A DNA stretch of 64,000 bases from Eledone cirrhosa (lineage: Eukaryota), in contig OZ024757.1 of the NCBI GenBank assembly GCA_964016885.1, positions 7,130,001 through 7,194,000 of the forward strand, given 5' to 3'. A model generated the notes under the pieces. It was not told the origin of the DNA and did not search any database. It worked only from the letters and a program-made list of their open reading frames with translations. Every line of letters starts with the position of its first letter. Within the stretch, counting starts at the first letter, position 1. Shown here one piece after another: positions 12,131 through 41,569 of the stretch. The position numbers were made by a program, and so were the translations under genes.

Positions 12131-12226
12131 TATATATACATATATATAAAAATATTACATAAATACATATATATACATAGACATAAACATATTACATATA
12201 TACATATAATTATATATACATATTAC

Positions 12227-12309
<83 letters not shown>

Positions 12310-12420
12310 CATATTACATATATACATATATATATATATATATAATTATTACATATATCCATATATATCCATATATATATATATATACATATAACATATA
12401 TATATATATATTCATATTAC

Positions 12421-12468
<48 letters not shown>

Positions 12469-12768
12469 TACATATATACATATATACATATTACATATAT
12501 ACATATATACATATTACATATATATATATACATATTACATATATATATACATATTACATATATATATATACATATTACATATATATATGTATACATATTA
12601 CATATATATATATATACATATTACATATATATACATATTACAGATATATATATACACATATTACATATATATATATACATGTAACATATATATATATACA
12701 TATTACATATATATATATACATATTACATATATATATATACATATTACATATATATATATATATATAT

Positions 12769-12822
<54 letters not shown>

Positions 12823-12994
12823 TACATATTACATATATATATATATATATATTTACATATGTATATATATATATATACATATTACATATATATATATACA
12901 TATTATATATATATACATATTACATATATATATATATATACATATTACATATATACATATATATATATTACATATATATACACATATTACATTT

Positions 12995-13029
<35 letters not shown>

Positions 13030-13266
13030 CATATTACATATATACATATTACATATATATATATATACATATTACATATATATATATATATATATACATA
13101 CATATAAACATATTTCATATATACATATATATGCATATACATAAACATATTACATATATACATATATATACATATATATATATAGATATATATATACATA
13201 TATATAAACATATTACATATATACATATATATACATATATATATATACATATTACATATATACATG

Positions 13267-13306
<40 letters not shown>

Positions 13307-13472
13307 AAGAATTAATATCTAGTAACATATGTATACAGATGCATATCAATGCTAGCAAATATATAGGCTTTGTCTAGGTAACTTTGTGGTTCAATGCATG
13401 GGGTTGCAGAACAATAATATGAGAGACGTAAAATAAGAAAATTATAAAATTAACTTACTTACTAAAATATCA

Positions 13473-13552
13473 CTTCCAACTAATTAGTTTCTGAAATGGA
13501 ATAAATAAACTTTCCGACGAAAATATAGAGAATCATTTCGTCGTCAGGGAAG
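13473..13552 (-). ncRNA. Type I hammerhead ribozyme motif, family D
   Basis: CUUCC-CUGACGA-c-GAAAUG..CAUUUC-a-GAAA-CUAAUUAG-UU^-GGAAG; stem I CUUCC/GGAAG; palindromic stem III ACUAAUUAGU. Confidence 0.8.
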
Positions 13553-13708
13553 ACTATTCTCAGCTAAGTGTCCAGGCATTCTCAGCTAATTGTCCAGACT
13601 CTGGAAACTTATACAAAAATAATTCAGTAGATAGAAAATAGCAAAGCGTGGACTGGATTCCTAGCCATTGAGAAAATCACTGCCTCTGCGTCGGTGGCTG
13701 AGAATAGT

Positions 13709-13788
13709 CTTCCCTGACGACGAAATGATTCTCAATATTTTCTTCGGAAAGTATATTTATACCATTTCAGAAACTAATTAGTTGGGAG
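13709..13788 (+). ncRNA. Type I hammerhead ribozyme motif, family D
   Basis: CUUCC CUGACGA cGAAAUG..AUAUUUUC(UUCG)GAAAGUAU..CAUUUCa GAAA CUAAUUAG UU^ GGGAG; predicted cut after 13783. Confidence 0.8.
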
Positions 13789-14232
13789 AGAAATTTTAGT
13801 AAGTAAGTTAATTTTATAATTTTCTTATTTTACGTCTCTCATATTATTATTCTGCAACCCCATGCATTGAACCACAAAGTTACTAAGAGAAAAACCTATA
13901 TATTTGCTAGCATTGATATGCATCTGTATGTATACATATGTTACTAAATATTAATTCTTTATAATTATCTCCAAATTATTTGTCGAGCAATATTTTGGCC
14001 ACGACTGCTGCTATGGTAGCAGGCAGGCCACTGTCTTATTAAGAAACCACTTTCAGCTGATTGACCTCGATGTCACGTGATTCATTCTTTTTGAATTTGC
14101 CACCGACGCAGAGGCAGTGATTTTCTCAATGGCTAGGGATTCAGTCCACGCTTTGCTATTTTCTATCCACTGAATTATTTTTGTATAAGTTTCCCGAGTC
14201 CTCGCTTTGCCTGGACACTTAGCTGAGAATAG

Positions 14233-14312
14233 TTTTCCTGACGACGAAATGATTCTTTATATTTTCTTCGGAAAGTATATTTATTCTATTTCAGAAACAA
14301 ATTAGTTGGGAG
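14233..14312 (+). ncRNA. Hammerhead motif family D, second tandem copy (slightly mutated)
   Basis: Core CUGACGA/GAAA intact; stem III reads ACAAAUUAGU (one mismatch); predicted cut after 14307, 524 nt from the previous site. Confidence 0.65.
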
Positions 14313-14358
14313 TGAAATTTTAGTAAGTAAGTTAATTTTATAATTTTCTTAATTTACA

Positions 14359-14396
<38 letters not shown>

Positions 14397-14880
14397 TACA
14401 TATATATATATATACATATTACATATATATATATATATATATACATATTACATATATACATATATATATATACATATTACATATATACATATTACATATA
14501 TATACATATATATATACATATTACATATATACATATATACATATTACATATATACATATATAAATATTACATATATATATATATATATACATATAACAAA
14601 TATATATATATACATATTACATATATATATATACATATTACATATATATATATACACATTACATATATATATATATTACATATATATATATACATATTAC
14701 ATATATATATATATACGTACATATTACATATATATATACATATATACATATTACATATATATACATATATACATATTACATATATATATATACATATATA
14801 CAGATTACATATATACATATATATATATTCATATTACATATATATACATATATATATATATATACATATTACATATATCT

Positions 14881-14942
<62 letters not shown>

Positions 14943-15611
14943 TACGTATATATATATACATATATACATGTATATATATATACATATATACATATTACAT
15001 ATATATACATATTACATATATATTCATATTACATTATATATATACATATTACATATATACATATATACATATTACATATTATATATATATATATACATAT
15101 TACACACATATATATATATATACATACATATTACATATATATATATAAATATATACATATTACATATATATACATATATACATATATACATATTACATAT
15201 ATATACATATATACATATTACATATATATATATACATATATACAGATTACATATATACATATATACATGTATATATATATACATATATACATATTACATA
15301 TATATACATATTACATATATATACATATTACATTATATATATACATATTACATATATACATATATACATATTACATATTATATATATATATATATTACAC
15401 ACATATATATATACATACATATTACATATATATATATAAATATATACATATTACATATATATACATATATACATATATACATATTACATATATATACATA
15501 TATACATATTACATATATATATATACATATATACAGATTACATATATTCATATATATATATACATATTACATATATATACATATATATATATACATATTA
15601 CATATATGTAT

Positions 15612-15676
<65 letters not shown>

Positions 15677-16502
15677 TACATATGTATATATATATACATA
15701 TATACATGTATATATATATACATATATACATATATATGTATATATATACATATATACACATATATACATATTACATATATATATACATATATACATATAT
15801 ATATATATACATATATACATATTACATATATATACATATTACATATATATACATATTGCATTATATATATACATATTACATATATATACATATATACATA
15901 TTACATATATATATATACATTTTACATATATATATATTACATATATATATACATATTACATATATATACATATTACATATATATACATATATACATATAT
16001 ATACATATATACATATTACATATATACATATATACATAATACATATATATATATATATACATATTACATATATATACATATATACATATTACTTTTTTAT
16101 ATATATACATATTACATATATATATATACATATTATATATATATAAAGATATACATATTACATATATATATACATATTACATATGTATATATATACATAT
16201 TACATATATATATACATATATACATATTACATATATATATATACATATATACATATTACATATATATAGATATACATATATACATATACATATAGATAGT
16301 ATTAGTTATACTATTTATGGTTATGTAAACACAAAACCTTAAGCAGTTGTAAGTATTTTACACACACCCTAAATAGTGGTAGGCAGTAATGTATTACTAC
16401 CTTATTACCAGTAAGTTAAGTAGCTCAATGTAAAAACATCAGATGATTTACAGAGCAGTTATATGAAATATATGAATCAAAGAACTGTTCAAAACATTAT
16501 TG

Positions 16503-16549
16503 TGCTTACAGCTGTTTCCTCCAAACCGAGGTTTGGATTCTTCGGAGCA
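16503..16549 (-). ncRNA. Hammerhead variant motif, family B
   Basis: Exact reverse complement of 18359-18405. Confidence 0.7.
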
Positions 16550-16598
16550 ATTTATTAATGCATGGACAGTTATATGACCTCCTTTTCAGCCGAGAACT

Positions 16599-16913
16599 GC
16601 CGAGAACTGCTTCAAAATTAGATATAACTCGCACATCCACTCGTTCAAAAAGCACAGCCTAGCCAACTCCACCTCACTTTCTAGCTACATTCACTATCTA
16701 AAATCTAAAAATAAACCATACACACTCAAATGGGAAGTGATAGGCAGCGCGACCTCGTATAAACCACCTAATAAATTCTGTAACCTCTGTATACTAGAGA
16801 CACACAATATTATCTTCTCCAACCGTAACCTACTTAACAAAAAATCTGAGGTGTTTGCAACTTGCCAGCACCGCCTCAGACATTCCTTCCAAAACTTTAA
16901 GCCCCATATATAG
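16599..16913 (+). pseudogene. C-terminal 104 aa of a Penelope-like GIY-YIG endonuclease (no start codon, absent from the ORF track)
   Basis: My translation: AENCFKIRYNSHIHSFKKHSLANSTSLSSYIHYLKSKNKPYTLKWEVIGSATSYKPPNKFCNLCILETHNIIFSNRNLLNKKSEVFATCQHRLRHSFQNFKPHI*; FKxRYxxH, CxLCxxE, LLN and CxH motifs. Confidence 0.8.
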
Positions 16914-18358
16914 CAATGTCGGACTGGAACCTAACACCACATCTAGCATCAAACACCAGAGACACACCCTATACTACATACCCAACACTAGCTGATCCAT
17001 TATAACACAAACAACGACATCCCTCTGGAACCCTTCGCAGGGAAAATACCCATTTATACCTCTACGGCAGGTGTGACAACATCCACCCACCTGGACGGCG
17101 CTACGCCGCTCTAAGGGTAATTTGAGCATCAATTGATCGGTTGGATGGTGTTGGGCAGAGGAAACACCTTCCTTAGACAGATGTAAAATGTTTTAATCGA
17201 GTAGCGCTGTTGACCAGTAGGACCAGGCCGCTGAGCGCAGTGAGTGAATGCAATGCAACTGCCGTGCGGGTTGTACGTATATGGATGATCTGACGGTCAG
17301 AGAGGGGTCGCGAGGACTGCGACTTGACCTTTGGCCTGCCTGGGGATGATTATCTTTCGACATCCAATGTAGCAAGCGATGACCCGGATCTTACCAGAGA
17401 TCATTGGGTCCTGAAGCAATCCTGCAATCACCGCGCCTGGTCATATGAGCAGACTACAACCATAGAGATCATTAATTTAGAATCCTCGCTCATCATCTAT
17501 AATTTCCATTTGTAGCACCTTAAGATGGGTTAATCCACCCTAATAATAATATGATCACCTTCAGCATAATTTAGTTAAACTACTCTATAGTTAGTACACT
17601 TTATGCTTTAAAAGTCTCTCTTGGAAGGTGCACCTCACCATAGAATTTAGGGTCTATATTGAGACACACTTTAATGGCTAGATATAGAAACCCCAGAGTT
17701 ACCTCCCCGCATGCATTAACTCCCCTTAGCCACACACACACTTCCGGTATTCAATGGCGTCTCTCGAAACGTAACAACCACCTGTATCGAACTAAAGAGC
17801 ACCAGACTACGATCTCTAACTGGATTGTCGTGGATTATGTGAAAGGCATATAATCGAAATATACACTCCCTTGACCATGAAAATACCGAAGTACATGAAT
17901 TACTTGACATCCCTGCGCTGTGCATCTCCAATACTTATAACACTTTTAATGCTTGCACTATCTTTAATGCTTATAATATTTCTCCACACACAGACTATAT
18001 CAATCATATAAAGACTTTGCCACCATATCTACCAACCTAACACTCTTATTTACCTACCTAAGTGCCTCTACCACACATATCTCTCTGCCACACTATATAA
18101 ACAAGACGCACATGCGTGCCACACATATAACATTTGCACTATATAACCACTTATCTTCATGTTGTACTTTAACCTATATCTTTGATTTTTTTGATTGTAC
18201 CTATTAATATAAATGTAATCTCGAAGTGTGTACTGCCACTCTAAATTCTGTAATGAATGTTGACCCACAATGTTTGAATATGTATCAATGTTTGAATATG
18301 TATTGGTATGTCTCTCGGCTGAAAAGGAGGTCATATAACTGTCCATGCATTAATAAAT

Positions 18359-18405
18359 TGCTCCGAAGAATCCAAACCTCGGTTTGGAGGAAACAGCTGT
18401 AAGCA
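18359..18405 (+). ncRNA. Hammerhead variant motif, family B (core CCGAAGA)
   Basis: UGCU CCGAAGA a UCCAAACC uc GGUUUGGA g GAAA CAGCUG UA^ AGCA; stem I UGCU/AGCA, 8-bp stem II, palindromic stem III ACAGCUGU. Confidence 0.7.
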
Positions 18406-18539
18406 CAATAATGTTTTGAACAGTTCTTTGATTCATATATTTCATACATATAGATATACATATTACATATATATATATATACATATATACATATATATAT
18501 ACATATATACAAATTACGTATATATATATACATATATAC

Positions 18540-18572
<33 letters not shown>

Positions 18573-19426
18573 CATATATACATATATATATACATATATA
18601 CATATTACATATATATACATATTACATATATATACATATTACATTATATATATACATATTACATATATACACATATATACATATTACATATATATATATA
18701 TACATATTACATATATATATACATATTACATATATATACATATATACATATATATACATATATACATATTACATATATACATATATACATATTATATATA
18801 TATACATATTACATATATATATATATATATATATACATATTACTTTTTTATATATATACATATTACATATATATATACATATTATATATATATATATACA
18901 TATTACATATATATATACATATTATATATATATATATACATATTACATATATATATATACATATTACATATATATATATATACATATTACACATATATAT
19001 ATATATATACATACTTATTACATATATATATACATATATATATACATATATACCTATTACATATATATATATATATATATACATATATACATATTACATA
19101 TATATGTATACATATATACATATTAAATATATTCATATATATATATATATACATATTACATATATATATATACATATTTACATATATATAGATATACATA
19201 TTACATATATGTATATGCATATATACATATATATATACATATATACATATTACGTATATATATATACATATATACATATATATATATACATATATACATA
19301 TATATATATAGACATATATACACATATATACATATTACATATATATATATATACATATATACATATATATATCTACATATATTAAGAGAGTAAAACAAAG
19401 AAGCCTTCAATACATCAAAAGTCTTT

Positions 19427-19472
19427 ATTAGCCGACAATGTTTCGTCCTATTAAGGACTCATCAGGGCAATT
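19427..19472 (-). ncRNA. Canonical minimal type I hammerhead ribozyme, family A, in a ~120-bp island (19378-19495)
   Basis: AUUGCC CUGAUGA GUCCU uaau AGGAC GAAAC AUU GUC^ GGC UAAUAAA; all core nucleotides canonical, GUC cleavage triplet. Confidence 0.9.
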
Positions 19473-20176
19473 AAAACAACAAGTAATAACGGTATATATA
19501 CGTATATACATATTACATATATACATATATACATATTACATATATATATATATACATATTACATATATATATATATATATACATATTACTTTTTTATATA
19601 TATACATATTACATATATATACATATTATATATATATAAAGATATACATATTACATATATATATATATATTACATATATATATATATACATATTATATAT
19701 ATAGATATATATATACATATTACACACATATATATATATATACATACATATTACATATATATATACATATATACATATTACATATATATATATACATATA
19801 TACATATTACATATATATATATACATATATACATATTAAATATATACATATATATATATGCATATTATATATATATATATATATACATATATAGATATAT
19901 ATATAGATATACATATTACATATATATATACATATATACATATATATATATATACATATATACATATATATAGATACATATATACATATATATATACATA
20001 TATACATATTACATATATATACATATTACATATATATATATATACATATTACATATATATACATATACATATTACATATATACATATCACATATATATAC
20101 ATATATACATATTACATATATATACATATACATATAACATATATATACATATACATATATACATATATATATATAC

Positions 20177-20234
<58 letters not shown>

Positions 20235-20237
20235 TAC

Positions 20238-20292
<55 letters not shown>

Positions 20293-20375
20293 TTACATAT
20301 ATCCATATATATCCATATATATATATATACATATAACATATGTATATATATACATATTACATTTATACATATTAC

Positions 20376-20447
<72 letters not shown>

Positions 20448-20557
20448 TACATATATACATATATACATATTACATATATACATATATACATATTTCATAT
20501 ATATATATACATATTACATATATATATATATATATACATATTACATATATACATGTA

Positions 20558-20598
<41 letters not shown>

Positions 20599-20599
<1 letters not shown>

Positions 20600-21640
20600 A
20601 AGAATTAATATCTAGTAACATATGTATACAGATGCATATCAATGCTAGCAAATATATAGGCTTTGTCTAGGTAACTTTGTGGTTCAATGCATGGGGTTGC
20701 AGAACAATAATATGAGAGACGTAAAAGAAGAAAATTATAAAATTAACTTACTTACTAAAATATCACTTCCAACTAATTAGTTTCTGAAATGGAATAAATA
20801 AACTTTCCGACGAAAATATAGAGAATCATTTCGTCGTCAGGGAAGACTATTCTCAGCTAAGTGTCCAGGCATTCTCAGCTAAGTGTCCAGACTCTGGAAA
20901 AATAATTCAGTAGATAGAAAATAGCAAAGCGTGGACTGGATTCCTAGCCATTGAGAAAATCACTGCCTCTGCGTCGGTGGCTGAGAATAGTCTTCCCTGA
21001 CGACGAAATGATTCTCAATATTTTCTTCGGAAAGTATATTTATACCATTTCAGAAACTAATTAGTTGGGAGTGAAATTTTAGTAAGTAAGTTAATTTTAT
21101 AATTTTCTTATTTTACGTCTCTCATATTATTGTTCTGCAACCCCATGCATTGAACCACAAAGTTACTAAGAGAAAACCTATATATTTGCTAGCATTGATA
21201 TGCATCTGTATGTATACATATGTTACTAGATATTAATTCTTTATAATTATCTCCAAATTATTTGTCGAGCAATATTTTGGCCACGACTTCTGCTATGGTA
21301 GAAGGCAGGCCACTGCCTTATTAAGAAACCACTTTCAGCTGATTGACCTCGATGTCACGTGATTCATTCTTTTTGAATTTGCCACCGACGCAGAGGCAGT
21401 GATTTTCTCAATGGCTAGGGATTCAGTCCACGCTTTGCTATTTTCTATCCACTGAATTATTTTTGTATAAGTTTCCCGAGTCCTCGCTTTGCCTGGACAC
21501 TTAGCTGAGAATAGATTTCCTGACGACGAAATGATTCTTTATATTTTCTTCGGAAAGTATATTTATTCTATTTCAGAAACAAATTAGTTGGGAGTGAAAT
21601 TTTAGTAAGTAAGTTAATTTTATAATTTTCTTATTTTACA

Positions 21641-21648
<8 letters not shown>
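20599..21648. mobile_element. Family D element block 2, with hammerheads at 20766-20845 (-), 20992-21071 (+) and ~21515-21594 (+)
   Basis: Near-identical to 13306-14367; predicted + strand cuts after 21066 and 21589 (523 nt apart). Confidence 0.85.
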
Positions 21649-21686
<38 letters not shown>

Positions 21687-21725
21687 TACATATATATATA
21701 TATACATATTACATATATATATATA

Positions 21726-21792
<67 letters not shown>

Positions 21793-22224
21793 TACATATA
21801 TACATATATATATATATACATATTACATATATACATATTACATATATATGCATATATATATACATATTACATATATACATATATACATATTACATATATA
21901 CATATATAAATATTACATATATATATATATACATATAACATATATATATATATATACATATTACATATATATATATACATATTACATATATATATATACA
22001 CATTACATATATATATATATTACATATATATATATACATATTACATATATATATATATACGTACATATTACATATATATATACATATATACATATTACAT
22101 ATATATACATATATACATATTACATATATATATATACATATATACAGATTACATATATACATATATATATATTCATATTACATATATATACATATGTATA
22201 TATATATACATATTACATATATCT

Positions 22225-22287
<63 letters not shown>

Positions 22288-22963
22288 TACATATTACGTA
22301 TATATATATACATATATACATGTATATATATATACATATATACATATTACATATATATACATATTACATATATATACATATTATATTATATATATACATA
22401 TTACATATATACATATATACATATTACATATTATATATATATATATACATATTACACACACATATATATATATACATACATATTACATATATATATATAA
22501 ATATATACATATTACATATATATACATATATACATATATATATATTACATATATATACATATATACATATTAGATATATATATATACATATATACAGATT
22601 ACATATATACATATATACATGTATATATATATACATATATACATATTACATATATATACATATTACATATATATACATATTACATTATATATATACATAT
22701 TACATATATACATATATACATATTACATATTATATATATATATATATATTACACACATATATATATATACATACATATTACATATATATATATAAATATA
22801 TACATATTACATATATATACATATATACATATATACATATTACATATATATACATATATACATATTACATATATATATATACATATATACAGATTACATA
22901 TATACATATATATATACATATTACATATATATACATATATATATATACATATTACATATATGT

Positions 22964-23024
<61 letters not shown>

Positions 23025-23726
23025 TACATATGTATATATATATACATATATACATGTATATATGTATACATATATACATATATATGTGTATATACACATA
23101 TATACACATATATACATATTACAGATATATATACATATATACATATATATATATATACATATATACATATTACATATATATACATATTACATATATATAC
23201 ATATTACATTATATATATACATATTACATATATATACATATATACATATTACATATATATATATACATTTTACATATATATATATATTACATATATATAT
23301 ACATATTACATATATATACATATTACATATATATACATATATACATATATATACATATATACATATTACATATATACATATATACATAATACATATATAT
23401 ATATATACATATTACATATATATACATATATACATATTACTTTTTTATATATATACATATTACATATATATATATACATATTATATATATATAAAGATAT
23501 ACATATTACATATTACATATATATATACATATTACATATATATATACATATTACATATATATATACATATTACATATATATATACATATATACATATTAC
23601 ATATATATATATACATATATACATATTACATATATATAGATATACATATATACATATATATATATATACATATATACATATATATATACATATATACAAA
23701 TTACGTATATATATATACATATATAC

Positions 23727-23763
<37 letters not shown>

Positions 23764-24646
23764 CATATATACATATATATATACATATATACATATTACA
23801 TATATATACATATTACATACATATACATATTACATTATATATATACATATTACATATATACACATGTATACATATTACATATATATATATATACATATTA
23901 CATATATATACATATTACATATATATATACATATTACATATATATACATATATAAATATATATACATATATACATATTACATATATACATATATACATAT
24001 TATATATATATACATATTACATATATATATATATATATATATATACATATTACTTTTTTATATATATACATATTACATATATATATACATATTATATATA
24101 TATATACATATTACATATATATATATACATATTATATATATATATATATACATATTACATATATATATATATACATATTACATATATATATATATATACA
24201 TATTACACATATATATATATATATACATACTTATTACATATATATATACATATATACTTATTACATATATATATATATATATATATACATATATACATAT
24301 TACATATATATGTATACATATATACATATTAAATATATTCATATATATATATATATACATATTACATATATATATATACATATATACATATATATAGATA
24401 TACATATTACATATATGTATATACATATATACATATATATATACATATATATATACATATATACATATTACGTATATATATATACATATATACATATATA
24501 TATATACATATATACATATATATATATAGACATATATACACATATATACATATTACATATATATATATATATACATATATACATATATATATCTACATAT
24601 ATTAAGAGAGTAAAACAAAGAAGCCTTCAATACATCAAAAGTCTTT

Positions 24647-24692
24647 ATTAGCCGACAATGTTTCGTCCTATTAAGGACTCATCAGGGCAATT
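24647..24692 (-). ncRNA. Hammerhead ribozyme family A, copy 2
   Basis: Identical motif to 19427-19472, 5220 bp downstream. Confidence 0.9.
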
Positions 24693-25388
24693 AAAACAAC
24701 AAGTAATAACGATATATATACGTATATACATATTACATATATACATATATACATATTACATATATATATATATACATATTACATATATATATATATATAT
24801 ACATATTACTTTTTTATATATATACATATTACATATATATATCTACATATTATATATATATAAAGATATACATATTACATATATATATATATATATTACA
24901 TATATATATATATACATATTATATATATAGATATATATATACATATTACACACATATATATATATATACATACATATTACATATATATATACATATATAC
25001 ATATTACATATATATATATATACATATATACATATTACATATATATATATACATATATACATATTAAATATATACATATATATATATACATATTATATAT
25101 ATATATATATATACATATATAGATATATATATAGATATACATATTACATATATATATACATATATACATATATATATATACATATATACATATATATAGA
25201 TACATATATACATATATATATACATATATACATATTACATATATATACATATTACATATATATATATATACATATTACATATATATACATATACATATTA
25301 CATATATACATATCACATATATATACATATATACATATTACATATATATACATATACATATTACATATATATACATATACATATATAC

Positions 25389-25462
<74 letters not shown>

Positions 25463-25569
25463 TACATATATACATATATATATATATATATAATTATTAC
25501 ATATATCCATATATATATATATACATATAACATATGTATATATAGACATATTACATATATACATATTAC

Positions 25570-25647
<78 letters not shown>

Positions 25648-25937
25648 TACATATATACATATATACATATTACAAATATACATATATACATATTTCATAT
25701 ATATATATACATATTACATATATATATATATACATATTACATATATATATATACATATTACATATATATATGTATACATATTACTTATATATATATATAT
25801 ATATTACATATATATACATATTACAGATATATATATACACATATTACATATATATGTATACATGTAACATATATATATACATATTACATATATATATATA
25901 CATATTACATATATATATATATATATTACATATATAT

Positions 25938-25990
25938 AGATGAGATTCTACAGGACTAGAACTGTTTCATTCTTTAGAAATCATCAGGAA

Positions 25991-26029
<39 letters not shown>

Positions 26030-26212: not shown

Positions 26213-26231
26213 TATATATATATATATATAT

Positions 26232-27396: not shown

Positions 27397-27429
<33 letters not shown>

Positions 27430-27430
<1 letters not shown>

Positions 27431-28483
27431 AAGAATTAATATCTAGTAACATATATACATACAGATGCATATCAATGCTAGCAAATATATAGGTTTTGTC
27501 TTAGTAACTTTGTGGTTCAATGCATGGGGTTGCAGAACAATAATATGAGAGACGTAAAATAAGAAAATTATAAAATTAACTTACTTACTTAAATTTCACT
27601 CCCAACTAATTAGTTTCTGAAATGGAATAAATATACTTTCCGACGAAAATATAGAGAATCATTTCGTCGTCAGGGAAGACTATTCTCAGCTAAGTGTCCA
27701 GGCATTCTCAACTAAGTGTCCAGACTCTGGAAACTTATACAAAAATAATTCAGTGGAGAGAATATAGCAAAGCGTGGACTGGATTCCTAGCCATTGAGAA
27801 AATCACTGCCTCTGCGTCGGTGGCTGAGAATAGTATTCCCTGACGACGAAATGATTCTCTATATTTTCTTCGGAAAGTATATTTATTCCATTTCAGAAAC
27901 TAATTAGTTGGGAGTGAAATTTTAGTAAGTAAGTTAATTTTATAATTTTCTTATTTTACGTCTCTCATATTATTGTTCTGCAACCCCATGCATTGAACCA
28001 CAAAGTTACTAAGACAAAGCCTATATATTTGCTAGCATTGATATGCATCTGTATGTATACATATGTTACTAGATATTAATTCTTTATAATTATCTCCAAA
28101 TTATTTGTCGAGCAATATTTGGCCACGACTGCAGCTATGGTAGCAGGCAGGCCGCTGTCTTATTAAGAAACCACTTTCCACTGATTGACCTCGATGTCAC
28201 GTGATTCATTCTTTTTCAATTTGCCACCGACGCAGAGGCAGTGATTTTCTCAATGGCTACGAATTCAGTCCACGCTTTGCTCTTTTCTATCCACTGAATT
28301 ATTTTTGTATAAGTTTCCAGAGTCCTCGCTTTGCCTGGACACTTAGCTGAGAATAGTCTTCCCTGACAACTTAATGATTCTTTATATTTTCTTCGGAAAG
28401 TATATTTATTCTATTTCAGAAACAAATTAGTTGGGAGTGAAATTTTAGTAGGTAAGTTAATTTTATAATTTTCTTATTTTACG

Positions 28484-28492
<9 letters not shown>
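27430..28492. mobile_element. Family D element block 3, with hammerheads at 27599-27678 (-), 27835-27914 (+) and a core-mutated copy at ~28358-28437 (+)
   Basis: Same architecture as blocks 1 and 2; third motif reads CUGACAA. Confidence 0.85.
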
Positions 28493-28521
<29 letters not shown>

Positions 28522-28558
28522 TACATATATATATATATACATATTACATATATATATA

Positions 28559-28641
<83 letters not shown>

Positions 28642-28919
28642 TACATATATACATATATATATATATACATATTACATATATACATATTACATATATATAC
28701 ATATATATATACATATTACATATATACATATATACATATATACATATTACATATATACTTATATAAATATTACATATATATAGATATATACATATAACAT
28801 ATATATATATATACATATTACATATATATATATATATTACATATATATATACATATTACATATATATATATACACATTACATATATATATATACATATTA
28901 CATATATATATATACATAT

Positions 28920-28962
<43 letters not shown>

Positions 28963-29151
28963 ATATTACACACATATATATATATATACATAAATGTTAC
29001 ATATATATATACATATATACATATTACATATATATACATATATACATATTACATATATATATATACATATATACAGATTACATATATACATATATATATA
29101 TACATATTACATATATATACATATATATATATATACATATTACATATATCT

Positions 29152-29196
<45 letters not shown>

Positions 29197-31076
29197 TACA
29201 TATTACGTATATATATACATATATACATGTATATATATATATACATATATACATATTACATATATATACATATTACATATATATACATATTACATTATAT
29301 ATATACATATTACATATATACATATATACATATTACATATTATATATATATATATACATATTACACACATATATACATACATATTACATATATATATATA
29401 CATATATACATATTACATATATATACATATATACATATTACATATATATATATATACATATATACAGATTACATATATACATATATATATATACATATTA
29501 CATATATATACATATATATATATACATATTACATATATGTATACATATATATATATATATATATACATATATACATATGTATATATATATACATATATAC
29601 ATGTATATATATATACATATATACATATATATATATATATAAATATATATATATACATATATACACATATATAGATATTACATATATATATACATATATA
29701 CATATATATATATACATATATACATATTACATATATATACATATTACATATATATACATATTACATTGTATATATACATATTACATATATATACATATAT
29801 ACATATTACATATATATATATACATATTACATATATATACATATTACATATATATATACATATTACATATATATACATATACATATTACATATATATACA
29901 TATATACATATATATACATATATATATTACATATATACATATAAACATATTACATATATATATATATACATATTACATATATATATATATATATATATAC
30001 ATATTACTTTTTTATATATATACATATTACATATATATATATACATATTATATATATATAAAGATATACATATTACATATATATATATACATATTACATA
30101 TATATATATATACATATTACATATATATATATGTATATACACATTACACATATATATATATATATACATACATATTACATATATATATACATATATACAT
30201 ATTACATATATATATATACATATATACATATTACATATATATATATACATATATACATATATATATACATATATACATATTACGTATATATATACATATA
30301 TACATATATATATATACATACATACATATATATATATACATATATACATATATATATACAAATATACATATTACATATATATACATATTACATATATATA
30401 CATATTACATTATATATATACATATTACATATATATACAAATATACATATTACATATATATATATATATACATATTACATATATATACATATTACATATA
30501 TATATACATATTACATACATATACATATACATATTACATATATATACATATATACATATATATACATATATACATATTACATATATATACATATATACAT
30601 ATTACATATATATACATATACATATTACATATATATACATATACATATTACATATATATACATATATACATATATATACATATATACATATTACATATAT
30701 ACATATATATATATTATATATATATATACATATTACATATATATATATATATATATATATACATATTACTTTTTTATATATATACATATTACATATATAT
30801 ATACATATTATATATATATATACATATTACATATATATATACATATTACATATATATATATATACATATTACATATATATATATATACGTGTTACACATA
30901 TATATATATATATACATATATATTACATATATATATACATATATATATATTACATATATATATATATATATACATATATACATATTACATATATGTGTAT
31001 ACATATATACATATTAAATATATACATATATATATATATATATATACATATTACATATATATATATATATACATTT

Positions 31077-34000
31077 AGTATTAAGGGTACTATTTATGGT
31101 TATGTATACAATAAAACCTTTAATGGTAATATATTATATATACACAAACCCTAAATAGTGAGAGATAGTCATTAATTACTATCCTATTACCAGTAAGATA
31201 AATAGCTCAATGTAATAACATCAGTTGTTTTACAGAGCAGTTATATAGAGATTACAGTAATCAAAGTTCAGTTTAAGTCATTTATTTGCTTACAATTGTT
31301 TCCTCCAAACCGAGGTTTAGATTCTTCGGAGCAACTATTTACTGATCTATAACATACTTGACCTCCTTTTCAACCCAAGAGACACATAAACCATATGCGC
31401 ATATTGATCAACAGTGGGGTGACATTCATCAAATGATATAGCATGGCAATTTACATATAAAGGTTACAGGATAAAAATAAAATAAAAACAAGAGTGAAAA
31501 TAAGAGTGAAAATAAAGATAAACATGAAGCATTGGCAGTCTATGAAGATAAAGCAAGAGGAAAGCTTAGAGTAGTCAGTGTATGAAACAATCTCCCGTGT
31601 AGCATGCACGCGTGTCTTATTTATACATGATTAGAGTGCGTCAGAATGATATTTGCAGGGTCAGGCAGTTGAAGCAGGCAATCGATCTTATTATGTAGGC
31701 TGAATTATTAAGTCATTTATTCTCATACATCTGTATGATATACAGTCTCGGATGCGGGGAAACACCAAAATATCAAAAACTTTCAACATACTATAAACCT
31801 TATTGTATCGTGGGCAAGGCCGTACCACTGTCCCTGCTCACACCACCACTCACATAATCCATGAGACGCAATATATATAGAGAACACGCGTCTATCGTAT
31901 AATTCGCGGTGGTTCAGCATATAGTCAAGCTATAAACCGTATCCAGTCGGTTCTTAATTAATATATCATGCTGTCCAGATTCCGGAAGTGCCTGAATGAC
32001 TAAGGGGAATTAATGCGTAAGGGGAGGTAACTAGCTAGTTATCTTAGTTACATTACTATCCTAAACTACATTAATGGTGATTCAAATACGTGCCTATCAT
32101 GTGAAGTTATAACTAATATCTAGAGTATGTTACCCATTTATAGGTTAGAAAGTTGTCCATTAAGAAGTACAAGGGTGTATATATTAGGATGATTACCATC
32201 CATTAATTAAGGGGTGTCATATCTGAACGTTCTATAAGAGGAGTCAGACTCTCAAGTCACTGCTCCATGCAAATGTAATATAACAGTAGGACCTGGTATG
32301 GTCCCACTATTATATATGCCCCCGGTAGGCTCCGGGTCATTGGATGCCTGCATCTCCAGTAAATCTTCGGTATGGTCCGGATATCCAATCTCTCATATAA
32401 ATGCACTAGTCTGGCCATCAAGCAATAGACAACCCCCGTCTCAAATATAAATCAATTATGTATCACATCTACAAGCTAGAGTGGAGTCTATTAATAGGTA
32501 CTAATGGAGTTCACATCAAGATGATTACGTGCATAATTCATTGAACTGATCGCTTACAGTATATATTCACAGAACAATACGATTATCTATCTAATCATCA
32601 ATCTATCTCTTGGTGGTAATCCATGCACAGGACTATGCTATCGCAACCAGTACCGTGTCCCCAATTTATACTAATCTTATATTTGTGCAATGCAGAATAA
32701 GTAGTCCACGGTCGAGATATCAGTATTAGAGGTACAAGGGGGTATTCCCAGGGTAGGTGGTACTAAAATGCTGTCAGTATTATCTTTAGAGATTAGTATA
32801 AATTGGGGACACGGTACTGGTTGCGATAGCATAGTCCTGTGCATGGATTAGCACCAAGAGATAGATTGATGATTAGATAGATAATCGTATTGTTCTGTGA
32901 ATATATACTGTAAGCGATCAGTTCAATGAATTATGCACGTAATCATCTTGATGTGAACTCCTTTAGTACCTATTAATAGACTCCACTCTAGCTTGTAGAT
33001 GTGATACATAATTGATTTATATTTGAGACGGGGGTTGTCTATTGCTTGATGGCCAGACTAGTGCATCTATATGAGAGATTGGATCTCCGGACCATACCGA
33101 AGATTTACTGGAGATGCAGGCATCCAATGACCCGGAGCCTACCGGGGGCATATATAATAGTGGGACCATACCAGGTCCTACTGTTATATTACATTTGCAT
33201 GGAGCAGTGACTTGAGAGTCTGACTCCTCTTATAGAACGTTCAGATATGACACCCCTTAATTAATGGATGGTAATCATCCTAATATATACACCCTTGTAC
33301 TTCTTAATGGACAACTCTCTAACCTATAAATGGGTAACATACTCTAGATATTAGTTATAACTTCACATGATAGGCACGTATTTGAATCACCATTTGAATC
33401 ACCATTAATGTAGTTTAGGATAGTAATGTAACTAAGATAACTAGCTAGTTACCTCCCCTTACGCATTAATTCCCCTTAGTCATTCAGGCACTTCCGGAAT
33501 CTGGACAGCATGATATATTAATTAAGAACCGACTGGATACGGTTTATAGCTTGACTATATGCTGAACCACCGCGAATTATACGATAGACGCGTGTTCTCT
33601 ATATATATTGCGTCTCATGGATTATGTGAGTGGTGGTGTGAGCAGGGACAGTGGTACGGCCTTGCCCACGATACAATAAGGTTTATAGTATGTTGAAAGT
33701 TTTTGATATTTTGGTGTTTCTCCGCATCCGAGACTGTATATCATACAGATGTATGAGAATAAATGACTTAATAATTCAGCCTACACAATAAGATCGATTG
33801 CCTGATTCAACTGCCTTACCCTGCAAATATCATTCTGACGCACGCTAATCATGTATAAATAAGACACGCGTGCATGCTACACGGGAGATTGTTTCATACA
33901 CTGACTACTCTAAGCTTTCCTCTTGATTTATCTTCATAGAATACCAACGCTTCGTGTTTATCTTTATTTTCACTCTTATGTTCACTCTTGTTTTTATTTT

Positions 34001-34236
34001 ATTTTTATCCTGTAACCTTTATATGTAAATTGCCATGCTATATCATTTGATGAATGTCACCCCACTGTTGATCAATATGCGCATATGGTTTATGTGTCTC
34101 TTGGGTTGAAAAGGAGGTCAAGTATGTTATAGATCAGTAAATAGTTGCTCCGAAGAATCCAAACCTCGGTTTGGAGGAAACAATTGTAAGCAAATAAATG
34201 ACTTAAACTGAACTTTGATTACTGTAATCTCTATAT
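31077..34236. mobile_element. Penelope-like non-coding remnant forming a ~3 kb palindrome (arms 31244-32677 and 32790-34236, 112-bp spacer)
   Basis: Arms are reverse complements with only scattered substitutions and one ~12-bp duplication; homologous but diverged relative to 16297-16590 and ~17000-18447; family B hammerheads at 31286-31334 (-) and 34145-34193 (+). Confidence 0.9.
34145..34193 (+). ncRNA. Hammerhead variant motif, family B (second subfamily)
   Basis: UUGCU CCGAAGA a UCCAAACC uc GGUUUGGA g GAAA CAAUUG UA^ AGCAA followed by AAUAAA; stem III palindrome ACAAUUGU. Confidence 0.7.
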
Positions 34237-34519
34237 ATATACATATATACATATATATATAGATATACATATTACATATATATATACATATATACATATA
34301 TATATACATATATACATATATATATACATATATACATATTACGTATATATATATACATATATACATATATATATATATACATATATACTTATATATATAT
34401 ATACATATATACACATATATACATATTACATATATATATATATATACATATATACATATATATATATACATATATTAAGAGAGTAAAACAAAGAAGCCTT
34501 CAATACATCAAAAGTCTTT

Positions 34520-34565
34520 ATTAGCCGACAATGTTTCGTCCTATTAAGGACTCATCAGGGCAATT
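34520..34565 (-). ncRNA. Hammerhead ribozyme family A, copy 3
   Basis: Identical motif to 19427-19472. Confidence 0.9.
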
Positions 34566-34712
34566 AAAACAACAAGAAGTAATATCGATATATATACATA
34601 TATACATATTACATATATACATATATACATATTACATATATACATATATACATATTACATATATATATATATACATATTACATATATATATATATATACA
34701 TATTACATATAT

Positions 34713-37700
34713 ATCATCATCATCATCACCGTTTTACGTCCGTTCTTCCACGCTAGCATGGGTTAGACGGGTTGTCCTGTTGTGGGCAGTGTCTGGTCGG
34801 CTGACCATGCCTTGCTCATACAGGAACTGATCTGGCTTGATTTCTACAGCTGGATGCCCTTCCTAACACCAACCTCATTTACAGTGAGTGCTGGGTACTT
34901 TTTCGTGGCGCCTACACGTCCACTTTACAGTGTGGGCTGGGTGCTTTTTTGCCGTGGCACCTCCACGACCACCTTGCGGTGGGAGGAGTGGGGGCATATT
35001 GTTTATATGCTTCAGCATGTACCCATGGGAGGTCGGGTACCCTGTATTACTGCGTGACGCCAGAAGTCACGGTCGTGTGTCATTGACTTTGAGAGGTGTA
35101 GTTGGGTAAGGTCGGCTTTTATCACCTCATCCCAAGTCATCTTGGGTCTCCCCACTCCGCGGTTTCCATCAACTTCTAGTGCTCTGCACCTTTTTATGCA
35201 GCTGTCATCCTTCATACGCATCACATGTCCATACCAGCGTAACCGCCTCTCCTGCACGCAGCATTTGATTCCTCTTATGCTCAGTCTCTCTCTCAATTCC
35301 TTTATGCTTTGTCGTTCACGTATATTACTGTTACACATCCATCGGCGCATGCAGGCTTCGTTTCTCTCTAATCTACGTAAGTCTTCCACCTTCAGCGCCC
35401 AGGTCTCACTACCATGCAACATCGCTGTTCGGATACACGCATCATACAGTCTGCCTTTCATTCTGAGGGAGAAGCCTTTTGCAGCTAGCAGTGGTAGTAG
35501 TTCCCTAAACTACTTCCATCCCGTTCTTACCCTAGTTATTGTACTTTCTGAGCACCCACCTCCGTTGCTAATTCGGTCACCTAGGTAGCAGAAGCTGTCT
35601 ACTGTTTCTACAGGGCCCTCCCAGAGATTGGTGGTACTTGTTTCCTGTGGCTGTTTGCTTGCTGTTTCAGCACAGCTGCTGCATGTGAATCCTACATTCT
35701 TAATTAAGCTTCCTGAGATCCCGCTACATCTCTTGTGTACCCATTGTTTGCATTTGGGGCAGAGAATGGAGTTCCTACCTACACCTTTCCTACATACTGA
35801 GCAAGGCCATTTCCCTGAGGGGATCTGGGTTCTGTTTTCTCGTCTACTTACAAGGACCTTAGTCTTTGTCATGTTGACTTTGAGGCCCCTTCTCTCTAGT
35901 CCCTGCTTCCAGGTTTGGAATTTATTCTCTAGTTCTACCATAGATTCAGCTATGAGTGCGAGGTCATCAGCATACAGGAGTTCCCATGGGCACCCGGTTT
36001 TAAACTCCTCCGTTATTGCCTGCAGGACTATGATGAACAGGAGAGGGCTAAGAACAGAGCCCTGGTGGACCCCAACCTGTACGCTAAATTCCTCGCTATA
36101 CTCATTGCTAATCCTAACTTTGCTGACTGCTCCCCTATACATGGCTTGTACCGCTTTCACAAGCCATTCATCTACTCCTAGTTTTCTAAGAGCCCACCAG
36201 ATTACTGCACGTGGAACTCTGTCAAAGGCTTTCTCAAGGTCGACAAATGCCAAGTAGAGTGGCTTACTTTTAGCTAGGTACTTTTCCTGTAATTGCCTCA
36301 CAAGGAAGAGGGCATCAGTGGTGCCTTTCCCTGGTACAAACCCAAATTGCATCTCGTCTATATTTACCCGGTCCCTAATCAGCTGTGCTATAACTCTTTC
36401 TGTTACTTTCATGACCTGGTCCAACAACTTTATACCTCTATAGTTTCCTCTATCTAGTGCATCGCCTTTACCTTTGTAGCAGTTGACAATGATGCTACTG
36501 CACCAATCTTTTGGTATGGCCCCTTCTAGTATTACCTGGTTAACGATACGTGTGGTTATAGTGTGACCTACAGACCCAGATGCCTTCAGCATCTCGGCAG
36601 CTATACCCGATGGACCGGTTGCCTTCCCTATCTTCATATCTCTGATTGCCTTACTTACTACGCTGCCGCTGACTTGTACTGCTGGTCCCTCTATAGGGTC
36701 TACGTGGGGTAGGGTCTCTTCTTCCCATGCATTCTCCTCATTTAGTAATCTATCATAATGACTCTTCCATGCATCTTTCTTCTCAACACTTGTGAGGGCA
36801 AGCTCACCTTTATCATTCCGGATACACTTCTCTCCAATGACATCACAACTATCTCTGACACACTGCCTCGCAATCTTGAATACCTCCTGTTTCTGGTCCT
36901 CACGTTGTAAAACATGCTTGAATTTTCTATCCTCTGCTTCCCTCCTAGCTAAGTATACTTGTCGCCTAGCTTCCCTCTTGGTCTCTATGTAATGTACCCT
37001 GCTCCCCCTGTTCTTCCATTCTTTCCATGCCTGTCTCTTGGCCTTGACTGCTTCATCTACCTTATTGTTCCACCACCAAGTCACTCTCCTCCTGCTTGAG
37101 GTCTTACTCCAGCCACAAACCTCATCCGTTGCCTCTAGTAAGTTATTTTTTAGGAACTCCCAGTTCTCTTCTACGTTAAATGTCTTTATCTGTTCTTCTT
37201 TACTGTCGTAGGCGTTGAGTAAAATATCTTTAAGTCTGTTACTGGTTGAGGGGACTTTCAGCTTCCAGATCTTTCTTCTCCAGGTTGGCCTCTGTTTCCG
37301 GGTTCGTCTAGTTCTGACCGTGAGGTCGCTGACAACTAAGCTATGTTGGGATGTACATTCCTCACTAGGGAAGGCTTTTGTGTTTGCGACCGTCCATCTG
37401 TCACGTCCTCTGATGAGGATAAAATCTAACTGACTAGAGTGCTCCCCTGATCTATAGGTGATCAGGTGGTTGTCGGGTTTTTTAAAGTTGTGTTACATAT
37501 CGACATGTCATTGGCGTCGCAGAATTCTAGAAGTCTGAATCCTTCCTCATTCCTTGTGCCAACTCCATGGCCTCCATGTACTCTATTGAAGCCGTCGCAG
37601 TGTTTACCTACGTGTCCGTTAAAATCTCCTGCAATGATTAGGAAGTCCTTGTCGTCTGTTAGAGCAGTAGTGTGTATTAGGGACTCGTAAAACCTATCCT

Positions 37701-38681
37701 TAAGTTCGTCTGGCAGCCCCGATTGGGGTGCGTAAGCTGATATTATTGTGGTGATTGTCTTATTTAGGACTAGTCTGAGTTTAATGATTCTTGCATTTAC
37801 CCTGTCCACTGAGATTACTTTATCTACCCACTTGTCAGCTAATAGTATACCTACACCACCCATCCCATCGTCATTTCCCACCCAGAAAAATTTGTAGCAC
37901 TGGCTTTTTCCTACAAGGACTCTAGCAGACCCTCCTCTCCATCTAGTCTCTTGCACACAGCATACATCAACTTCCTTTCGCTCTAGCATTTCTACGATTT
38001 CTCCTGCTCTTCCTTTCATTGAGCCTACATTGATGGTACCAACTCGGAGTTTTGGGCATTTGTCGACACTCGTAGGGGAGGGTCTCTGGGTTGGCGCTTC
38101 ACGTGGGTGCTTGGTAGCTCGCAGATTCATATTTCATCTATTGATTCAGAGTTGCTCGTGTATTCCCAGCTCATCCATCCATAAATTGCGGGCTAGAAGA
38201 ACAGTGGTGGTGGGGTAATGGCAGGGTGTGTTGGGATGCGCCAGAGGGGGAGAGAGTTAGTTAGGCAGGTAGTAGCAGCAGTGGAAATGGCATGCTAGGT
38301 TTGATTGGTCGAATAGACTATGGTGGTGTGTGGGGGTGGGGGGGGGGGGGAAATTGTGAGGTAGGAAGTGAGGGTCGCATGGTAAATAACAGAGAGAAAC
38401 AATAGGATTAGAATACCGCATGGTAAATATCCAAGTTAATACTACATCAGTAAAATTAACGTCATGAAAAACTACTAAGAGAAACCCTCGAAAATTTATT
38501 GCTAATACAGCAGGAAAAATGTATCGCTAATACAGCAGGGAACATCATAATATTAACAACAATATGTAGGCTAAAATACCTTCGTAGATTAGATGGATGG
38601 CTGGGAAAATTGGAATCAGCTCTAGTGATACATTTTAGCAGAGAAGAATGGGAAAGTGTCTTATCTCTTCAATATTTTCTG
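34713..38681 (-). mobile_element. Essentially full-length RTE-clade LINE (~4 kb)
   Basis: 5' UTR ~38131-38681; single APE-RT ORF 38130-35012; 3' UTR ends in ..cccatgctagcgtggaagaacggacgtaaaacggt(gat)n. Confidence 0.95.
35012..38130 (-). pseudogene. RTE APE endonuclease-reverse transcriptase ORF with one frameshift (~37478) and one stop (35510-35512)
   Basis: GTINVG, VQETRW, SAYAPQ, GDFNGH; DLEKAFD, GVHQGSVLSPLLF, LLYADDL; Cys-rich CSVC..CPKC..HKRC..CSSC; RRLRWYGHV..GRPKMTW. Confidence 0.93.
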
Positions 38682-39316
38682 TATATACATATACATATTA
38701 CATATATATACATATATACATATACATATTACATATATATACATATATACATATATATACATATATACACATTACATATATACATATATACATATTACAT
38801 ATATATATATATATATACATATTATATATATATATACATATTACTTTTTTATATATATACATAGTACATATATATATATATACATATCATATATATATAT
38901 ATATATACATATTACATATATATATACATATTACATATATATATATTACATATATATATATATACATATTACATATATATATATATATATATATATTACA
39001 CATATATATATCTATACATACATATTACATATATATATACATATATACATATTACATATATATATACATATATACATATTATATATATATATACATATAT
39101 ACATATTAAATATATACATATATATATATATATACATATTACATATATATATATATATACATATATACATATATATATAGATATACATATTACATATATA
39201 TACATATATATATATATATATACATATATACATATTACGTATATATACATATATACATATATATATATATATACATATACACATATATATATACATATAT
39301 ACACATATATACATAT

Positions 39317-39361
<45 letters not shown>

Positions 39362-40384
39362 ATATATACATATATACATATTACATATATATATACATAT
39401 ACATATTAAATATATATACATATATACATATATATACATATATACATATTACATATATACATATATACATATTACATATATATATATACATATTACATAT
39501 ATATATATACATATTACTTTTATATATATATACATATTACATATATATATATACATATTATATATATATAAATATATACATATTACATATATATATATAT
39601 ATTACATATATATATATACATATTACATATTACATATATATATATATATACATATTACAAATATATATATCTATAAATACATATTACATATATATATATA
39701 TATACATATTACAAATATATATATCTATAAATACATATTACATATATACATACATATATACATATTACATATATATATATACATATATACATATTACATA
39801 TATATATATACATATATACATATTAAATATATACATATATATATATATATACATATTGCATATATATATATATATACATATATACATATATATATACATA
39901 TATACATATTACGTATATATATACATATATACATATATACATATATATATATATGCATATATACATATATATATATACATATATACATATATATATACAT
40001 ATATACATATTACACATATATACATATTACATATATATACATATTACATTATATATATACATATTACATATACATACATATATACATATTACATATATAT
40101 ATATATACATGTTACATATATATACATATTACATATATATATATATACATATTACATATATATACATATACATGTTACATATATATACATATATACATAT
40201 ATGTACATATATACATATTACATATATATACATATATACATATTAGATATATATACATATACATATTACATATATATACATATACATATTACATATATAT
40301 ATATATATACATATATACATATATATACATATATACATATTACATATATACATATATACATATTACCTATATATATATACATAT

Positions 40385-40478
<94 letters not shown>

Positions 40479-40483
<5 letters not shown>

Positions 40484-41312
40484 GACGTAAAATAAGAGAA
40501 TTATAAAATTAGCTTACTTCCTAAAATATCACTTCCTCTCATCTAAGTATCCAGGCAAAGCGGGGACTCTGGAAAGTTATTCAAAAATAATACTGTGGAT
40601 AGAAAATAGCAAAGCGTGGACTGAATTCCTCGCCATTGGGAAAATCCTTTATAATTTTCTTATTTTACGTCGCTCATATTATTGTTCTGCAACCCCATGC
40701 ATTGAACCACAAATTTACTAAGACAAAACCTATATATTTGCTAGCATTGATATGCATCTGTATGTATATATGTTACTGGATATTAATTCTTTATAATTAT
40801 CTACAAATTATTTGTCGAGCAATATTGGCCATGACTGCTGCTATGGTAGCAGGCAGGCCGCTGTCTTATTAGCAAACCACTTTCCACTGATTGACCTCGT
40901 TGTCACGTGATTCATTCTTTTTGAATTTGCCACCGACGCAGAGGCAGTGATTTTCTCAATGGCTAGGAATTCAGTCCACGCTTTGCTATTTTCTATCCAC
41001 TGAATTATTTTTTAATAAGTTTCCAGTGTCCACGCTTTGCCTGGATACTTAGATGAGAATAGACTTCCCTGACGACGGAATGCTTCTTCGTATTTTCTTA
41101 GGAAAATATATTTATTCCATTCCAGAAACTAATTAGTTGGAAGTGATATTTTAGTAAGTAAGTTAATTTTATAATTTTCTTATTTTACGTCTCTCATATT
41201 ATTGTTCTGCAACCCCATGCATTGAACCACAAAGTTACTAAGACAAAACGTATATATTTGCTAGCATTGATATGCATCTGTATGTATATATATTACTAGA
41301 TATTAATTCTTT
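40479..41312. mobile_element. Family D element block 4 (more diverged; deleted inverted part plus ~1.3 monomers)
   Basis: tttataattttcttattttacgtc recurs at ~40648 and ~41168 (about 520 bp apart). Confidence 0.8.
41063..41144 (+). ncRNA. Type I hammerhead ribozyme motif, family D (diverged copy)
   Basis: ACUUCC CUGACGA c GGAAUG..UAUUUUCU ua GGAAAAUA..CAUUCC a GAAA CUAAUUAG UU^ GGAAGU; perfect 6-bp stem I; compensatory change in stem II. Confidence 0.85.
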
Positions 41313-41338
41313 ATATATACATATATATATATATATGC

Positions 41339-41370
<32 letters not shown>

Positions 41371-41389
41371 GCATATATATATATATATA

Positions 41390-41539
<150 letters not shown>

Positions 41540-41569
41540 TATATATATATCCATATATGCATATATATA

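Follow-up and report, generated by a model that had tools for sequence, protein, structure and literature searches.

A three-copy 5-6 kb tandem repeat in a TA-rich satellite of Eledone cirrhosa, probably formed by unequal DNA exchange with hammerhead-bearing elements as likely passengers

When two ribozyme-bearing islands recur at multi-kilobase intervals along a simple satellite, did the ribozymes make the repeat, or were they carried along by it? The question is raised by positions 7130001-7194000 of contig C18 in the 3.0-Gb assembly of Eledone cirrhosa (hereafter the window; 64,000 nucleotides without any N). An earlier note on this DNA had described a 5-6 kb unit of TA-rich satellite holding an island of family D and an island of family A, and had left two options for its repetition, unequal crossing-over or RNA-mediated amplification through a hammerhead ribozyme. 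The 5-6 kb triplication is present in the assembly. It very probably arose by tandem duplication to three copies where the satellite originally stood, likely through two rounds of unequal DNA exchange. The hammerhead-bearing elements are likely passengers, since the joins are distant from the predicted cuts and no copy of the unit was found elsewhere in the genome.

The array (9092..41577) is a compound, locus-specific satellite whose CATATTA and (TA)n units form an irregular higher-order repeat of ~0.6-0.8 kb, and which is broken up by elements; its start, formerly set at 12131, lies at 9092, a Helitron (9551-12130) splitting the array. Three plus-strand units follow one another: unit 1 (13306..20598) with islands D1 (13306..14365) and A1 (19380..19495), unit 2 (20599..27429) with D2 (20599-21647) and A2 (~24600-24715), and unit 3 (27430..40477) with D3 (27430-28490) and A3 (~34473-34591). 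Unit 3 represents an older lineage and runs on into the right, ancestral part of the array. The order of the islands and the coordinates of islands and inserts had been read correctly, and the size of insert-free units, put at ~5.1-5.9 kb, was measured at 5142 bp for unit 1 and 5868 bp for unit 2, each minus its insert, and at 5915 bp from D3 to the next D block, D4 (40478..41312), minus inserts.

Once TA runs are compressed, long stretches match exactly, and in the same order, between copies 1 and 2. Global alignment of the satellite between D and A, inserts removed, gave 0.71% mismatches and 31 gap openings for copy 1 versus copy 2, and 2.4-2.9% mismatches and 62-67 gap openings for copy 3 versus either; unit-shuffled controls (n=5) gave 4.1-4.7% and 99-115, ~3x the gap openings of the copy 1/2 pair, and a non-orthologous control (n=1) 5.1% and 106. 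Measured against both kinds of control, the satellite is collinear between copies, as had been claimed. Overall divergence is about 0.7-1% between copies 1 and 2 and 2.4-3.5% for copy 3, and the D islands agree in this (10/1055 sites differ between D1 and D2, 37/1064 between D1 and D3); D2 also bears a 10-bp deletion. The copies are head-to-tail, collinear and several kilobases long, as in a local tandem segmental duplication. The rare satellite variants said to recur in matching order have to be divided: caaattacg, together with cataatac and catacttattac, is private to copies 1 and 2, whereas tacttttttata (9x in the window) and cagattac (8x in the satellite) are not rare and recur through the higher-order repeat of the satellite itself.

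What the locus looked like before the expansion can be judged from its paralogs. Unique flank probes detected three further copies of the locus on C18, at 8.99, 7.61 and 9.79 Mb, and the right part of it also on contig C1636; contig C1554, with the right flank only, was left out. The probes lie 33.0 kb apart in the window and 12.1, 10.0 and 14.1 kb apart in the paralogs, within a shared block that reaches from left of the window start to ~47176 of the window. In 3/3 paralogs the layout is flank, satellite, D, satellite, D4, flank, and 0/3 show the 5-6 kb repeat; the Helitron and the three inserts (16297, 31073, 34713) are likewise missing from all of them. Island A is absent from paralogs P2 and P3 and occurs once in P1, where it is identical to A3. 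The paralogs preserve the ancestral state and the empty sites, and by comparison with these three, each with both flanks, the expansion lies at the ancestral site between ancestral flanks. The block at 40478-41312, which had been counted as the fourth D of the series, differs in build and occupies the same position in all 3 full paralogs and on C1636; D4 is therefore to be regarded as a separate D-family insertion common to the paralogs and not as a repeat unit.

Against this layout, the join that created the repeat can be placed. The switch of the best-matching paralog segment, together with base-level comparison with the three paralogs, puts a novel junction of post-A satellite with pre-D satellite at 20150..20230, beside a (TA)18 run; its second copy lies at 25380..25457, so that the window holds two versions of it, and a (TA)17-29 run adjoins the junction in all copies. 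It is 716-796 bp from the predicted cut of A1 and 541-621 bp from the minus-strand predicted cut of D2. In the same base-level comparison no element sequence or end, tail or inversion was found at the junction, which lies in homologous or microhomologous DNA without a transposition footprint, as expected of local duplication.

Markers and island genealogy give the order of events. The searches used exact patterns over 3.0 Gb, by which diverged copies would be missed. A 37-nt marker just upstream of the 25380 junction matches twice, both times in the window; an 11-bp mark common to D1, D2 and D3 and lacking in the paralogs matches three times, all here; the truncation joint of A matches four times (three here, one in P1); a pre-D marker matches five times (three here, two in paralogs); and a 31-nt satellite marker has 19 exact matches, confined to this locus, its three C18 paralogs and C1636. 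The D copies of the window form one clade (98/96) in which D1 and D2 are nested (100/99), these two sharing 17 derived sites and D3 none with either, and in 20/24 windows of 200 bp unit 2 resembles unit 1 more closely than unit 3. On this evidence copy 2 appears to derive from copy 1, and no A ribozyme lies to the left of the D block of copy 1.

A had inserted in the lineage shared with paralog P1. Unequal DNA exchange then probably built the array in the following manner. A first exchange between post-A and pre-D satellite, by a long (TA)n run, would have produced a ~5.9 kb dimer, and a later one would have doubled the left unit into copies 1 and 2. Penelope-type elements, a long interspersed nuclear element (LINE) and the Helitron, several of which favour (TA)n, would then have entered single copies independently of one another; those at 16297, 31073 and 34713 would postdate the exchanges or belong to single lineages. 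Of the two original options it is thus unequal crossing-over that paralogs, junction and marker searches support, although as routes of exchange unequal crossing-over, sister-chromatid exchange and replication template switching look alike here and cannot be told apart.

In the other option, a hammerhead-cut transcript would serve as unit-length RNA, to be reverse-transcribed and reinserted in tandem. An intact-looking predicted minus-strand type I hammerhead in the A island of each unit and an ORF-bearing (open reading frame) parent element in the genome are in its favour, and Penelope-like elements can hold several kilobases between their repeats (PMC6431247). The unit ends, however, do not lie at cut sites: the nearest predicted cuts are 540-800 bp away from the breakpoint, and the junction is at least 540 bp from any. 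The single minus-strand hammerhead per unit, on which the idea was founded, is not single either, for D adds one minus-strand fold plus up to two plus-strand folds, which makes two minus-strand and one to two plus-strand predicted folds per unit instead of one on the transcribed strand; with minus-strand folds in both A and D, cutting would split the unit into pieces of ~1.3 and ~3.8 kb. An RNA running from A to A would carry a copy of D3 with its satellite, whereas the sister of D2 is D1 and unit 2 mostly follows unit 1. The A joint, the D mark and the three satellite markers (4, 3, 19, 5 and 2 matches) are confined to this locus and its paralogs or C1636, and P1 has a tandem of the same satellite that formed without A in the repeated part. 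By the earlier note's own reckoning, this option falls if the unit is confined to this place and its breakpoints have nothing to do with the ribozyme. Both hold as far as the exact-pattern searches reach, the unit markers being restricted to this locus or its paralogs, and RNA-mediated amplification is very improbable.

Island A itself seems to be the 3' tip of a Penelope-like element. A1 is the last 115 bp, on the minus strand, with a minimal type I hammerhead at 19427-19471 and a predicted cut at 19434/19433. Rfam RF00163 scores it at 31.7 bits, just below the gathering score of 34, with a complete core on the minus strand; stem I has only three contiguous pairs and was missed by a strict fold scan that detects D. 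The family is dispersed (1500 first-look candidates genome-wide, 40 scored). The 30 loci fetched comprise three in the window, one in a paralog and 26 with unrelated, mostly (TA)n flanks, and in 26/26 of these dispersed loci the satellite of the window is absent from the flanks; fetched loci vary in 5' truncation and include inverted copies, a ~100-bp tail and (TA)n targets. The fourth match on C18, L003, which has the identical truncation point, was considered as a dispersed ribozyme-started unit and rejected, being a segmental duplicate with both flanks.

A near-full-length Penelope-like parent of family A was seen at L076:1074-7447, where AT-rich non-coding repeats of ~2.1 kb (1074-2687 and 5304-7447) lie on either side of a broken ORF with a GIY-YIG remnant. 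The GIY-YIG match is weak (PF01541, E=0.002, 18.8 bits, below the cut-off of 22.6). A 176-aa piece, a candidate reverse transcriptase without a Pfam match, contains the word YRDD, which we take to be a reverse-transcriptase motif.

Island D is of a different kind and fits the anatomy of a retrozyme without long terminal repeats (non-LTR), namely a short non-coding tandem monomer with one predicted type I hammerhead each. In D1 a 522-bp non-coding monomer is repeated in a partial tandem, which has an inverted 5' copy and three type I hammerhead folds (predicted cuts at 13783 +, 14307 + and 13478 -). Both islands therefore bear hammerhead folds, as the earlier note had it, A by a sub-gathering Rfam score and D by a wider fold scan; Rfam found no hammerhead in D1. 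The fold of D has a 5-bp stem I, a 6-bp stem II prolonged by a UUCG-capped hairpin, a short palindromic stem III and a predicted GUU site. That D lacks stem II was considered and rejected: the first scan had limited the region to 40 nt, and the wider one found a stem II region of 49 nt. Across 14 copies, picked for variety from ~60 D-family folds, 97% of cells are paired and three pairs are altered on both sides; shuffles of D1 gave any match in 1/1000, versus three folds in real D1, counts that are not probabilities because the 14 copies are chosen and related and the structure was taken from one of them. The stem II region is unusually long at 49-51 nt (window 13708-13789 +; e.g. L045:2482-2565), and D subfamilies show compensatory changes in stem II.

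Family D is likewise dispersed (2989 first-look candidates genome-wide, 40 scored), and none of the 27 non-window loci fetched, two of which overlap, has the satellite of the window in its flanks, which are unrelated and mostly (TA)n; dispersed copies of both A and D end in (TA)n. The sequencing runs listed, 22 in number, consist of 19 contig sets and three RAD-seq runs; of those compared over 13530-13700, 4/4 contain the D family, whereas the window-specific D mark was met in six loosely fitting reads from one run of four, which is uninformative on the array. Several other hammerhead-like folds, unrelated to these, were seen no more than 1.5 kb from dispersed D copies (L036, L041, L042, L046, L047, L049 and L060), some with stem II regions of 52-88 nt, and another, at 44543-44591 (-) outside the array, is conserved in P1 (L062:7793-7841). 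The Rfam microRNA matches, among the matches listed, were set aside as hairpin or TA-repeat noise far below gathering scores.

The insertions private to the array of the window number five, and the description of each copy as hit by different ones is borne out. A Helitron that is internally deleted and retains a remnant of a PIF1 helicase (9551..12130, -; PF05970, E=1e-62) occurs in this copy of the locus only, its empty site being present in 3/3 full paralogs. It suggests one more rival, rolling-circle copying by the neighbouring Helitron, and just after the array, at ~41577, there is what we presume to be a Helitron-like 5' end; neither Helitron end, however, lies in the repeated unit or at the junction, and such an origin of the tandem is scarcely credible. 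Copy 1 alone carries a 5'-truncated Penelope-like insertion (16297..18447, +) with an inverted 134-bp end (16462-16595 recurs inverted at 18313-18446, 100%) and a C-terminal endonuclease remnant, whose protein is 49% identical over 103 aa to the GIY-YIG-bearing ORF of L076 (E=2e-30); it has no Rfam match, and its empty site is in copy 2 at ~23640, where it had been suspected.

Copy 2 has a composite insertion (25938..26900), made of a palindromic element and a ~0.67-kb element with terminal direct repeats; its empty site is found in P1 and in the satellite before D1, and no hammerhead match in Rfam falls in 26030-26905. The palindromic part (25938-26226) represents a third family with type I hammerhead-like cores on both strands and a GUA site, a 120-bp relative of which inserted independently in P1 (L062:2146-2265). 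Two insertions are confined to copy 3. One is a palindromic Penelope-type element (31073..34236) with 1.45-kb arms (98%) and ends 76-79% like the 16297 element, its empty site being present in copies 1 and 2. The other is a LINE with broken frames and an (ATG)n tail (34713..38681, -), which we presume to be of RTE type, with a reverse transcriptase (PF00078, E=2e-32) and an apurinic endonuclease (PF03372, E=5e-9); its empty site is less exact, since the adjoining satellite of copy 3 also differs from that of the other copies. A 95.8% identical relative over 3.3 kb lies on C18 near 7.59 Mb, near P2 but outside its satellite.

Elements so attached to (TA)n might have acted by their enzyme instead of their ribozyme: a Penelope-type endonuclease would have cut the (TA)n run at the junction, and the break would have been repaired off a misaligned sister. 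The (TA)17-29 run beside the junction in all copies, the (TA)n ends of dispersed A and D copies and the five private insertions point in this direction, as does the published (TA)n bias of some Penelope-like clades (PMC8557442). The junction, on the other hand, is without element sequence, tail or inversion, and with at least 21 runs of at least 15 TA units in the array a junction near one is expected; fragility of TA tracts would look alike. This trigger, which is unlikely, is a sub-case of unequal exchange and inseparable from it by sequence alone. In a wider and equally doubtful form, Penelope endonuclease cuts in (TA)n would start multi-kilobase tandem duplications besides insertions, and a feedback loop of more satellite, more targets and more breaks would reshape the segmental duplicates by C2H2 zinc-finger genes; the four paralogs with their differing array builds would, if this is true, be a natural test set.

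Those duplicates deserve description in their own right. C18 holds at least four of them between 7.13 and 9.81 Mb, 96-99% identical, two inverted and with differing insertions in the common satellite, and each adjoins C2H2 zinc-finger arrays (at 56705-57850 in the window, further right in the paralogs). P1 has its own 2.13-kb tandem of satellite and shortened D, without A in the repeated part (L061:5121-7777); its D copies differ at 1/536 sites, and it is either very recent or an assembly duplicate. P3 (L067) contains, in its last TA tract and just inside the right flank, a ~4.5 kb insertion with an inverted terminal structure, which is not in the window.

Several points weigh against two rounds of unequal exchange. 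The physical reality of the array rests on one assembly, and one false copy is possible. The breakpoint is placed only within ~80 bp in simple satellite, and the second exchange only to ~20230-20630. Unit 2 scored nearer to unit 3 in 4/24 windows, which may be noise or gene conversion; the D1/D3 divergence of 3.5% exceeds the flank divergence between paralogs of 1.1-2.7%, for which faster change of hairpins or conversion by other D copies is a guess. Exact patterns, finally, are blind to diverged copies of the unit, but the units are young enough that any amplified family should show in such searches.

A false copy would mean that the assembler placed two haplotypes of a real dimer one after the other within the satellite, so that copy 1 or copy 2 is spurious. 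Copies 1 and 2 differ by only 0.3-1.2%, which is plausible for alleles, the satellite in front of D2, at 1098 bp, falls 650 bp short of its 1748-bp counterpart, and the 16297 insert could be a presence/absence polymorphism. However, the window has no N, and the diagnostic stretch (16297-26900) is 10.6 kb, a distance within ordinary long-read length. The occurrence of the junction in two versions and the 2.4-3.5% divergence of unit 3 indicate that at least the dimer is real, and we consider a false copy improbable.

The worth of the locus is modest: it is a clean worked case of how a multi-kilobase tandem repeat arises within a simple satellite, and its paralogs still show the ancestral state and the empty sites. 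It also teaches caution, in that one hammerhead spacing per repeat unit need not mean a ribozyme-driven repeat where such elements saturate (TA)n tracts; amplification through RNA, if true, would be a new route to macrosatellites, and the results argue against it. No description of this locus was found in the literature on this combination of features, and supplementary files, which lay outside the search, could list related families.

The array and its islands can be compared with known systems. Metazoan non-LTR retrozymes (PMC7229834; bioRxiv 10.64898/2026.07.22.740005) are like the D island in consisting of non-coding monomers in tandem, each with one type I hammerhead; the published monomers, however, measure 150-450 bp, compared with 522 bp and a long stem II in D, nor is the 5-6 kb macro-unit itself a retrozyme. 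Family A has in common with Penelope-like elements that bear minimal hammerheads (PMC4209133; PMC8557442) the 5' truncation, inverted copies, tail and GIY-YIG ORF between repeats; what sets A apart is the ~2.1 kb length of its ORF-flanking repeat, of which the window keeps the final 115 bp only. Terminons (PMC6431247) and Schistosoma W-elements (PMC8490949) likewise associate large or satellite-like repeats with hammerhead motifs; they are dispersed or telomere-attached and a role of the ribozyme has been proposed, whereas the present array occupies one locus and its unit ends ignore the ribozymes. In tandem arrays of transposable elements arising from double insertion (McGurk and Barbash 2018, PMC5932611), target-site preference also stacks elements at one spot, and recombination can expand them, but here the unit is mostly host satellite and the junction lies in satellite and not at element ends. 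There is likeness, too, to human megasatellites of interspersed transposable elements (Warburton et al. 2008, PMC2588610), which have multi-kilobase tandem units, a repeating element pattern, simple-sequence arrays with higher-order structure and an attribution to unequal crossing over; the octopus array differs in having just three copies, inside a locus-specific TA satellite whose paralogs keep the unexpanded state. It looks like a real case of the ordinary local tandem duplication described for such element-containing megasatellites (PMC2588610), set in a satellite that attracts (TA)n-targeting elements.

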